Source of the DNA: a virus
DNA: 64,000 nucleotides
Virus record (IMG/VR): IMGVR_UViG_3300019776_000550
Coordinates: 27,499-91,498 of that record
Direction: 5' to 3' (one strand)
The notes beneath the pieces are model-generated. The model was not told where the DNA came from. It was given only the letters and a program-made list of their open reading frames with translations, and searched no databases. This document shows, one piece after another, positions 15,071 to 21,651 of this stretch (positions are counted from its first letter, which is position 1; the number at the start of each line of letters is the position of its first letter). Both the position numbers and the translations under genes were made by a program.

Positions 15071-17002
15071 TTAAAATAGTTTTAATTGATTTTTGTTAAC
15101 TTTTTTATTCTTACTTTTATAATCTTGTTCAATATCATCAATAAGCTTTTGAGCTTCTTGAATATAATATCTAAAATCTATATCAGTAGGAAAATCATCA
15201 GGTAATCTGTTAATTAATTCTACATTAAATCCTGAAACTATTTGAGATATTCTACCATCTTCAAATACTTTTTTAAGTTTCTTATAAGATTTAGCTACAT
15301 AAAATCTAACAGTTCTTGATACTTCTTCTTCTTGAATAGAAACACCGTTATAAACTTGAATAACAAGTTTATCTTTTTTGTTACAACGTTCTTTTAAACA
15401 AAACTTTTTAATATCATAACAAGTTGTTATAGTTTCTCTAATAGAAATATTGTTTACAAAATAGTTAATAGCTGCAATTACACTAATTTGATTGCTATAA
15501 TCTTTATGATAAGGGTCAGGTACTGAATCTGATTTTAAATCAGGTACATAAGCTCCTTTGTACTTATATTTATTTTCTTTAGTTATAGCAAAATAATTAT
15601 TTACATCTCTAATAAACATGGCTTTATAAAAAACTTCTTCTAATTCCATGTTAAAAAAAGATTCCCATTGATTACATATCTTTCTAAAATTGTCAATTTG
15701 ATTATTATTAACATAAACGGTAATACCATCTGTATTAGCTTGTATAATTTGACAATCTTCTATTTCTGATATATCTTCTAATAACTTTAATAATCTAAGT
15801 TGACCATTAATAGTTACTTTAAATGTACACGCAATATCATACAAAAAACTATACTTATCCTTAAATTTGCCATAAACACTATTAAGTGCTTTTTTATAAG
15901 TATCAGATTGAATTTTAGCATTTTTATCACTTTTAATAAGTGATTTATTTTGCTTTCTCCAAGTAACTTGTGATTTAGCAACTTTAAGAAAAGATTCTTT
16001 ATTAAGATGTTCAGGCACTGCTTCTAAATCTATATAAAGTGAAGGATATAGTGATGCTACATCTACATCAATTATACTATGAGTAGAAGACTCTTTGAAA
16101 ACACCTTTTAAAGAACCATGAATACCACCTTTTTTAACATCTAATTTAAGTTCTTTAATATATACATCAAATGCAACTTTATTTTCAATGCTATCTTTAT
16201 TATCATTGCTATTATAAATAACAACTTTTTTAAGTTCGTGTTGAAGTTCTTTTAAATGATTTTGTTTAAAGTTGATATGTTGTATTATATCTTTTAAATT
16301 AACAAAATCTCTATTAGTTCTTCTTTGTAGAACTTCTTGTGGGTTCTCATTTGTTTCTTTACAATAATAATATAAAAAAAGATGTTCTCCTAACTTAGAA
16401 TCTGACCAATTAATACAATCTAAATTTGTATTTTGTTTGATATTTTGTCTAAGTCTTATGTTATCAACCATTTTTAAGAAAAACTGATAAGTAGCTTGAA
16501 CATCATTAAGATTGTATTCAAGTATTTTATTTTGTTCTTCTATCTTTGTAATTGTAGAAGTATAATGATAAGGCATATCTTCTACATTAGGCAATTCTAA
16601 AGCAACTTCTAATTGTTTTAAAGAAGTTCTTCTTGCTGGATTATCAAAATGAGCTATACTAAATACATCAATCTGACTAAATATAGGATTTCTAATCCTA
16701 TTGAATTTAGGAGTTTCGGTATTTACAAGTCTTTGACTTTCTTTATATAACAAATCATTCATTTCTTCTAATGGGAGATTACCAACTATATTGAAAAGAT
16801 AATCTAAAAGTGGATAATCATAGTTTAAGTTATTAAAACCTATACCTATTATACCACTATTTACAAAATCTTTATATTCTTGATAATCATTATTAAATAT
16901 AGATAAGGTGAAGCTTTTAACTTCACCTGTATCTATATCTAACCACGTTGAACAATGAAAATTTTTAAATTGCTCAATATCATATACCCAAATATTTCTC
17001 AT
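15071..17002 (-). CDS. polB: DNA polymerase family B with 3'-5' exonuclease
   Basis: YDIE, GFNNLNYD, YNLNDV exonuclease motifs; DVASLYPS, KKALNSVYGK, NTDG polymerase motifs. Confidence 0.93.
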   Translation of the reverse strand: MRNIWVYDIEQFKNFHCSTWLDIDTGEVKSFTLSIFNNDYQEYKDFVNSGIIGIGFNNLNYDYPLLDYLFNIVGNLPLEEMNDLLYKESQRLVNTETPKFNRIRNPIFSQIDVFSIAHFDNPARRTSLKQLEVALELPNVEDMPYHYTSTITKIEEQNKILEYNLNDVQATYQFFLKMVDNIRLRQNIKQNTNLDCINWSDSKLGEHLFLYYYCKETNENPQEVLQRRTNRDFVNLKDIIQHINFKQNHLKELQHELKKVVIYNSNDNKDSIENKVAFDVYIKELKLDVKKGGIHGSLKGVFKESSTHSIIDVDVASLYPSLYIDLEAVPEHLNKESFLKVAKSQVTWRKQNKSLIKSDKNAKIQSDTYKKALNSVYGKFKDKYSFLYDIACTFKVTINGQLRLLKLLEDISEIEDCQIIQANTDGITVYVNNNQIDNFRKICNQWESFFNMELEEVFYKAMFIRDVNNYFAITKENKYKYKGAYVPDLKSDSVPDPYHKDYSNQISVIAAINYFVNNISIRETITTCYDIKKFCLKERCNKKDKLVIQVYNGVSIQEEEVSRTVRFYVAKSYKKLKKVFEDGRISQIVSGFNVELINRLPDDFPTDIDFRYYIQEAQKLIDDIEQDYKSKNKKVNKNQLKLF

Positions 17003-20742: not shown

Positions 20743-20781
20743 TTTTTTTTTTTTGATTTAATTACACAGCTTAAAATAAAA

Positions 20782-21650
20782 TAATTACAATTGTATGATT
20801 TAATGCAAGTAGTTTGATTAACTTCTCGGAACTAACTTTCATAAGAATTTCTTCTTATAACCAGTACATCCTTTGCACATACAATTGTAATTAATTGTTT
20901 TTAAATGTTCGGTTGTGTCTGTTTTGTATATCACAACTTTATCTTACACATCTATTGAGAAACCTCCAATGTCTCAAATGTTTTTCAATGTGTAAACCAG
21001 ATGCTTTACTTCAAACATTTCAAAGCTTCAATGGAGTTTGTAAGCTTTGAATAACAATGACCTTTTAACTTACATGATTTTCTCATGTAAAACTTTTATA
21101 AAAGTAGTTTCAAGATTTATTTAGACACGTTTATCTCATCATCAGATTGTTTTCGTGTATATTTTAATTCAAAACTTAATAATAAAACAACAACTCTAGG
21201 TGTACATATCATAGGTAGTGAGCCTATGTACATATTTTTCACAGTTGAGCGTTGTTGCTTTATTATCTACTTCTAATAACATCAGTTGTCTTTTGTTATT
21301 AGATTCACCTTCTGTTCACTCTAAGCAAGTACGTGTTATTGTATTAACACAATGCGATATGAGCATAAACAGTTTTCATCTCCTTATTTAAGGGAAACTA
21401 GGTTAGTCAAAAAAAAAAGAAGTAGTTTATTCTTTCAGATGTCTTTTAAAAAGACGGAAAGATGGACACAGCTGACATTGTAAGCAGTCCTACTTCTTTT
21501 ACGTAATCCTACCATCATGTCACTAGGTAGGTTTCCCACTCAACCTTCTATCATTATGATAGCTAACCCTTGTGAAGTTAGAATGAGGTTTTAAGAATCG
21601 TTAGTTTTATTCTGTTGCCAAGAAAAACTAACAAAAAACTCCGAATCTTA
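20782..21650 (-). ncRNA. ORF-free tract of tandem structured RNA elements
   Basis: At least nine consecutive stem-loop or junction modules; G-U pairs favour the minus strand. Confidence 0.65.
21049..21158 (-). ncRNA. type I hammerhead ribozyme (variant core)
   Basis: Minus: stem I AACAAU/AUUGUU; CUGAUGA (21145-21139) plus extra U; stem II GAGAU/AUCUU; GAAAC; long stem III; GUC (21061-21059); ACACG/CGUGU pseudoknot. Confidence 0.7.
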
Positions 21651-21651
21651 T

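Follow-up and report, generated by a model that had tools for sequence, protein, structure and literature searches.

Hammerhead ribozymes cleave their own backbone through attack by a 2′-OH group, with G12 and G8 acting in catalysis, and the cut falls 3′ of position 17, next to A1.1. About 40% of hammerheads have a pseudoknot between stem I and stem II, which fast cleavage requires (PMC3088659). In the hammerhead of CChMVd (+), an extra nucleotide, A10, is naturally present and is moderately slower, while A10U is 3-4 fold faster and C or G is detrimental, according to PMC3705267, which cites De la Pena and Flores (2001). A second relevant system is RAGATH-34 (RF03103), which is typed in Rfam as Gene; sRNA and not as a ribozyme. 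The Rfam model draws CUGAaGA as a local hairpin loop, with UGgu paired to acCA, and stops at GAAACC, where GUUGAAACCUguauc is left as a single strand. The model contains neither stem III nor the distal strand of stem I, and therefore does not represent a hammerhead. Our literature search found no paper naming RAGATH-34 or RF03103; the main text of a 2017 report of 224 candidate structured RNAs (PMC5737381) does not mention RAGATH, and its authors may nevertheless have noted a likeness to hammerheads. A third system is that of the YrlA Y RNAs, which carry tRNA-like domains; in 254 bacteria and 22 phages they are encoded on the strand of a Ro60 gene and no more than 4 kb from it (PMC4201824).

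The locus described here lies in a stretch of 64,000 nucleotides (the window) that spans positions 27499-91498 of an IMG/VR phage record. The record is complete at 91.5 kb, with direct terminal repeats of 99 nt and a GC content of ∼28%. Genes up to ∼22930 of the window are on the minus strand, including that of a DNA polymerase (15071-17002), and genes from 23391 onward are on the plus strand. Between these, a 909-nt stretch (20743-21651) contains no ORF of at least 60 amino acids, and within it a hammerhead-type RNA element with all core nucleotides can be read on the minus strand at 21158-21053. A sequence-only reading of this DNA had proposed a variant type I hammerhead, and both the core and the covarying relatives described below support that proposal. 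We consider it probable that the minus strand encodes a type I hammerhead at 21167-21053, and that this is the minimal version of a phage RNA family whose longer members Rfam lists as RAGATH-34; cleavage and a biological role are what we infer from this assignment.

The element, with all coordinates on the minus strand, begins with the 5′ strand of the pseudoknot, ACACG (21158-21154), which pairs with CGUGU (21129-21125) inside loop II. The 5′ strand of stem I, AACAAU (21151-21146), forms 6 bp with AUUGUU (21058-21053). The core C3-A9 follows as CUGAUGA (21145-21139), and the core strand is then interrupted by U21138, an extra nucleotide relative to the standard core, so that A9 does not run directly into G10.1. 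Stem II pairs GAGAU (21137-21133) with AUCUU (21116-21112) over 5 bp and, together with its 16-nt loop, occupies 21137-21112. The usual quasi-conserved G10.1-C11.1 pair is absent from its base, where G10.1 itself is kept and pairs with U11.1. Downstream of stem II are G12, A13, A14 and A15.1 (GAAA, 21111-21108), followed by stem III and its junction (21108-21060) and the cleavage triplet GUC (21061-21059), in which C17 is C21059. The A15.1-U16.1 pair is present, and the CUGAUGA, GAAA and GUC segments of the core are all intact, as had been claimed. The hammerhead rule places the predicted cleavage site between C17 and A1.1, at 21059/21058.

Stem III is the one part of the original description that had to be redrawn. 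A stem is present, but what had been taken for one bulged and extended helix consists of three pairs (A21108-U21060, C21107-G21061 and U21106-G21062) that open, past an A-A mismatch, into a three-way junction. The two other arms of this junction are a mini hairpin, P3a (21104-21093), and a conserved hairpin, P3b (21091-21069), with a GAAAA loop. Compared with its relatives, stem III of the window's element is weak, and the element may therefore be a slower member of the family.

Searches with existing models did not recover the element. At gathering score, no Rfam family matched in a scan of the whole window, and the check that had been suggested, against the Rfam hammerhead models, gave no match even at E ≤ 10, whether 901 nt or 151 nt was searched. 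The RAGATH-34 model gave no match to the window at E ≤ 10 either, so its gathering threshold of 60.7 bits was not reached. The hammerhead models also gave no match to two relatives, the minimal L051 (even at E ≤ 10) and the longer L012. A blastn search of the ORF-free gap against 50,697 phage records found no match, and no relatives were found for the 66-aa neighboring gene. Folding of the element alone gave a z-score of only −1.0 against shuffles, a value that is uninformative for a single sequence because the RNA is AU-rich and pseudoknotted, and the MFE fold (−17.2 kcal/mol) differs from the hammerhead fold, although the nested hammerhead fold (−10.7 kcal/mol) and the pseudoknot duplex (−4.3 kcal/mol) together come close to it. 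The lack of a match to the Rfam hammerhead models and the folding of the element alone, along with the weak stem III, the G-U pair in place of G-C and the insertion in the core strand, count against the hammerhead reading. Since the Rfam and folding checks were negative, the case rests on comparative evidence.

Relatives were first collected with an exact 19-mer spanning stem I and the core, and the flanks of these matches share the whole layout. Three further scans used patterns that left out CUGANGA, GUH or stem I, or that included only part of these. In total, 51 distinct relatives with the full architecture were found in phage and metagenome contigs. In this architecture, the 5-bp pseudoknot strand is separated by 2-3 nt from the 6-nt strand of stem I, after which come CUGANGA and a linker. 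Stem II follows, with 5 bp closed by G-U and a loop of 14-16 nt, then GAAAC, a domain of 47-252 nt that holds stem III, and finally GGU-H followed directly by the stem I complement. The linker between A9 and G10.1 is 1 nt long (only U or A) in 14 relatives and 2 nt long in one, while in the remaining relatives it spans 19-96 nt and contains a hairpin. The extra U that the sequence-only reading placed after A9, at 21138, is thus a hallmark of the family, and one with experimental precedent for an extra A or U (PMC3705267).

The nearest twin of the element, L147:684-805 (122 nt), is 86% identical over exactly 21167-21053 and unrelated beyond, with homology stopping at 21053, the last nucleotide of stem I. 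As this homology is confined to 21167-21053, the element is a self-contained module with the boundaries of the hammerhead. A loosened pattern applied to genome contigs returned 120 stretches, almost all of them chance matches, and the full architecture was found in L179 alone; a host can therefore not be inferred. Two of the longer relatives, L012 and L016, are members of RF03103 by score, at 76.7 and 71.9 bits, and the minimal relative L051 scores 25.7 bits (E = 0.041) against the same model, below gathering.

Several other copies and neighbors were observed in these contigs. Canonical small type I hammerheads share large phage contigs with RAGATH-34-type elements in L061, L077, L083, L089 and L120; these (e.g. 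on the L061 reverse strand, 658-719) have no linker, a G10.1-C11.1 pair and a stem III of ∼25 nt. A decayed copy in L021 (+), at ∼9510, keeps the GAAAC domain and P3b and has no CUGANGA, with GAUU replacing GGUC. L007:10917-11250 (+) is a partial copy without the distal strand, and in L009 (+), upstream of 11746, a partial second copy is fused upstream, with GUUAAAAC replacing GUUGAAAC.

Covariation was assessed in two alignments, A2, with 20 representatives of all subtypes, and A3, with 13 minimal members whose linkers are 1-2 nt long; as a null for pairing, the 3′ partners were slid by 1-3 columns. In A2, 96.4% of cells are paired, compared with 28-42% when the partners are slid, and in A3 the corresponding values are 97.4% and 31-39%. 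Pairs changed on both sides in A2 number 6/6 in stem I and 4/5 in the pseudoknot, which bears out the stem I and 5-bp pseudoknot originally drawn, and 2/5 in stem II, which is paired in 100% of cells and whose covarying form in A2 is supplied by the window. Across A3, 20 of 33 pairs are changed on both sides, including three of six in P3a and six of seven in P3b, and the third pair of stem III covaries from C-G to A-U. The relatives hold 13 strand combinations for stem I and ten for the pseudoknot, the latter including ACACG/CGUGU, AGUGG/CCACU, CUUGG/CCAAG, ACUGG/CCAGU, CCAGG/CCUGG and GUAGC/GCUAU, and stem II occurs as GACUU/AAGUU, GAGAU/AUCUU and GAGUU/AACUU. The G-U pair closing stem II, also remarked on in the sequence-only reading, is invariant across the aligned relatives (20/20 in A2 and 13/13 in A3).

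Within the core, GAAA is invariant in the alignments, an invariance partly imposed by the search patterns, and core conservation is partly circular because GAAAC stood in those patterns. When 5′ domains were set only by the pseudoknot, stem II and UUGAAAC, the expected 7-mer was CUGANGA in all recognizable members, with N7 free to be U, A or G. When the distal site was located only by complementarity, leaving positions 16.1 and 17 free, the triplet was GUH in 44 of 46 relatives, and position 17 was C in 34, U in ten and A in two, but never G. The predicted cut 3′ of C21059 fits these comparative data. A kept core with a free N7 and no G17 is, in sequence terms, what one expects if the hammerhead works, rather than if it is a mere scaffold. 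The fold, conservation and modular boundaries of the element are thus established at the level of comparison among relatives.

Other explanations would give these same features a different meaning. A chance match to the hammerhead consensus might be entertained in AT-rich DNA with a GC content of ∼28%, where CUGAUGA alone is not enriched (11 copies compared with 6.9 expected) and the fold z-score is unremarkable, but chance does not produce homologs in which six helices carry compensatory changes. When both strands of the whole 91.5-kb phage were scanned with a relaxed type I hammerhead descriptor, this element was the only site found, and 20 shuffles gave none. The covariation in A2 and A3 and the descriptor scan already refute a chance match, to which we assign a negligible probability. 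It has also to be considered that the functional fold might be the local hairpin of the Rfam consensus, with CUGANGA in its loop, and that the long-range stem I is incidental or transient. The pairing of UGgu with acCA in that consensus speaks for this, as does the finding that, in 29 of the 33 members whose linker holds a hairpin, the linker opens with bases complementary at 5/5 positions to the 5′ strand of stem I; the local hairpin is therefore a genuine alternative, and may act as a device for folding or timing. However, the window's element cannot form the hairpin because its linker is a single U, and it is likewise impossible in the 14 other members with a 1-nt linker, whereas the distal stem I is present and covarying in all types. 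The Rfam model also leaves GUUGAAACC unexplained as a conserved single strand. As the functional fold of the family, the local hairpin is very improbable.

The more serious rival, which we still regard as unlikely, is a conserved RNA that uses a hammerhead-like junction as a scaffold, e.g. for protein binding in a Y-RNA-like particle, with no self-cleavage. Such a role would agree with the sRNA type given to the related RAGATH-34, with the lack of a match to hammerhead models, and with the G-U closing pair and insertion beside A9/G10.1. The conserved P3b loop has no part in hammerhead catalysis, and the longer relatives adjoin a Ro60-like gene and carry a cloverleaf, as described below. What a scaffold leaves unexplained is that all catalytic nucleotides are kept while N7 is free and G17 never occurs, and that the distal strand always starts directly after GUH. 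A self-cleaving type I hammerhead remains the preferred reading.

If the element is such a hammerhead, stems I, II and III would form as the early transcript is made. Stem I would pair the nucleotides that immediately precede CUGAUGA with those that immediately follow GUC. Stems II and III would complete the junction, and the 5-bp pseudoknot of loop II with the 5′ flank would hold stems I and II side by side. By analogy with hammerhead chemistry, the 2′-OH of C21059 would attack the next phosphate, with G12 and G8 in catalysis. The upstream product would end in a 2′,3′-cyclic phosphate and retain the ribozyme at its 3′ end, and the downstream product would start with a 5′-OH at A21058. Cleavage would part an upstream ∼0.5-kb structured, ORF-free RNA from the RNA that leads into small early genes. 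In 11 minimal or AT-rich relatives, an ORF begins 24-34 nt after the predicted cut; as minimal relatives are predicted to cut at this distance before a start codon, the general role is probably the trimming and insulation of a gene's 5′ leader in a polycistronic early transcript. Unlike in many minimal relatives, no convincing ORF follows the window's cut, a point against the hammerhead reading: the first ORF of at least 60 amino acids starts 316 nt past it, and the intervening 316 nt hold hairpins and an inverted-repeat element. For the window's element, self-processing of the early transcript would be the most economical role, and it matches what has been proposed for clustered bacterial and phage ribozymes (PMC6765202).

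The minus strand also carries a type-P1 twister ribozyme (RF03160, 19805-19867), 1.2 kb further downstream than the hammerhead. It scores 58.9 bits (E = 2e-13), and a standard scan misses it because this is just under the gathering score of 67.2. Its presence, like that of the canonical small hammerheads in contigs with relatives, speaks for the hammerhead reading. The pair would support an early phage transcript cut by its own ribozymes. A further candidate, a “variant twister” at 21533-21597 (minus strand), was rejected, with no Rfam match at E ≤ 10 in the 121 nt searched. Just 5′ of the hammerhead, the ORF-free segment 21160-21540 (minus strand) is strongly structured (MFE −95.5 kcal/mol, z = −4.66) and matched no Rfam family. 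RNA-library contigs from three studies contain the equivalent of 21170-21534 from relatives, at 90-99% identity, and do not show transcription of this phage; these contigs (X1-X4) leave out 21040-21169 and are thus silent on expression or cleavage of the hammerhead. Separately, a 27-bp inverted repeat around 80 nt occupies 20771-20904 (fold z = −5.72). Over 121 nt it matches L004:5024-5144 with 99% identity, and the copy in L004 is placed differently with respect to the shared genes. This repeat may be an RNA module that is mobile or under strong constraint.

The upstream flank had also been credited with a sequence that competes for stem I and could make the ribozyme slow or switchable. The competitor, GUUGUUUU (21188-21181), does exist, but in the MFE fold it lies within a 17-bp hairpin. 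The idea of a switch fares poorly among the relatives, where an upstream complement of stem I matching at 8/8 positions occurs in only two of the 51 elements analyzed, those of the window and L147.

The long relatives differ from the window's element in their surroundings. Twenty-four of the 33 elements with a hairpin in the linker precede a complete ORF (564-604 aa) that starts at +85 to +159 nt from the predicted cut, and in six more the ORF is open at the contig end; examples are L012:4263-6062 (−), L016:1009-2769 (−) and L058:6335-8050 (−), with more than 20 others. The encoded protein matches DUF2828 and DUF7788 as well as PHROG 850, annotated as “RNA-binding protein”. Its AlphaFold model is of low confidence (pLDDT 56), and a Foldseek search of the PDB with it gives Ro60, Rsr or TROVE structures as all of its seven best matches, with 507-575 aligned columns and E-values of 7e-5 to 8e-4, at TM-scores of only 0.22-0.36. 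As phmmer found no match to the protein among PDB sequences, the link to Ro60 rests on the low-confidence model and Foldseek. In L012, a tmRNA lies ∼1.3 kb upstream of the Ro60-like gene and a tRNA array lies downstream. A search of the window's phage genome for DUF2828 (PF11443) gave no match, a result that is uninformative because its control matched nowhere either.

In some of these relatives (L016:2917-3180 (−), L057:325-554 (+) and L120:10339-10568 (+)), the insert in stem III is predicted to form a cloverleaf of four arms, one of them a 7-bp acceptor-like stem and another a T-arm-like hairpin whose loop has 7 nt, although neither ARAGORN nor the Rfam tRNA model calls a tRNA there. Taken together, these observations suggest a tentative scheme, which we hold to be possible rather than probable, in which RAGATH-34 is no small RNA in its own right but the 5′ two-thirds of a large self-cleaving hammerhead whose stem III, in large phages, carries the cloverleaf and whose cut falls 85-159 nt before the Ro60-like (DUF2828/DUF7788) gene. 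The RNA would then be a ribozyme-finished, Y-RNA-like partner of the protein, and the 105-nt element of the window would be the stripped-down catalytic chassis. The Y-RNA-like reading is a hypothesis about the long relatives and not about the window. If it holds, these relatives link a ribozyme to Ro60-type RNA biology; our literature search found no paper drawing such a link, and a recent paper on phage Ro60 makes no mention of ribozymes.

Compared with YrlA-type Y RNAs (Chen et al., 2014, PMC4201824), the likeness is confined to the long relatives, where an RNA with a tRNA-like cloverleaf immediately precedes a Ro60-like gene encoded on its strand. They differ in that the long relatives do not match the YrlA model and their module sits inside stem III of a hammerhead, and the window's phage has no such cloverleaf. 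The resemblance to RAGATH-34 is closer. Both share the pseudoknot strand, AAAC, CUGANGA, GACUUAAA and AGUUGAAACC as common blocks, along with the pseudoknot helix and a block ending in UUGAAAC, and in A2 and A3 the window lines up with members that match the model. The window has neither the 11-bp linker hairpin between CUGANGA and GACUU nor the upstream hairpin of RAGATH-34, its stem II is the covaried GAGAU/AUCUU, and the UGgu/acCA pairing of the Rfam model is absent from it. The hammerhead reading would give this orphan family a concrete, testable function, and would explain why short RAGATH-34 constructs, from which the distal strand 73-315 nt away is missing, could not cleave.

Among experimentally characterized ribozymes, the CChMVd (+) hammerhead offers the nearest parallel to the linker, with one extra nucleotide at exactly A9/G10.1, where the 1-nt linkers of the window's family are only U or A. 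It is a viroid hammerhead of type III with a G-C closing pair, and it has no long insertions at this place. With the type I hammerheads of bacteria and phages (Perreault et al., 2011, PMC3088659; e.g. RF00163), the window's family shares the three-helix junction open at stem I, identical core nucleotides, a GUH site, a Watson-Crick pseudoknot between the stem I flank and loop II, and a location between phage genes near other ribozymes. The family differs from them in its A9/G10.1 linker, its invariant G10.1-U11.1 pair, a stem III junction with a conserved hairpin, and the lack of an Rfam match. If the reading is true, the core of a hammerhead can accommodate, between A9 and G10.1, inserts that range from a single base up to an entire hairpin. 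The family would then add an architecture that current covariance models miss, in which the linker measures 1-96 nt, the G10.1-U11.1 pair is obligatory and stem III is branched. Judged by these likenesses and differences, the window's element would add a structural variant to a known ribozyme class, and through its relatives an orphan Rfam family would be re-interpreted.
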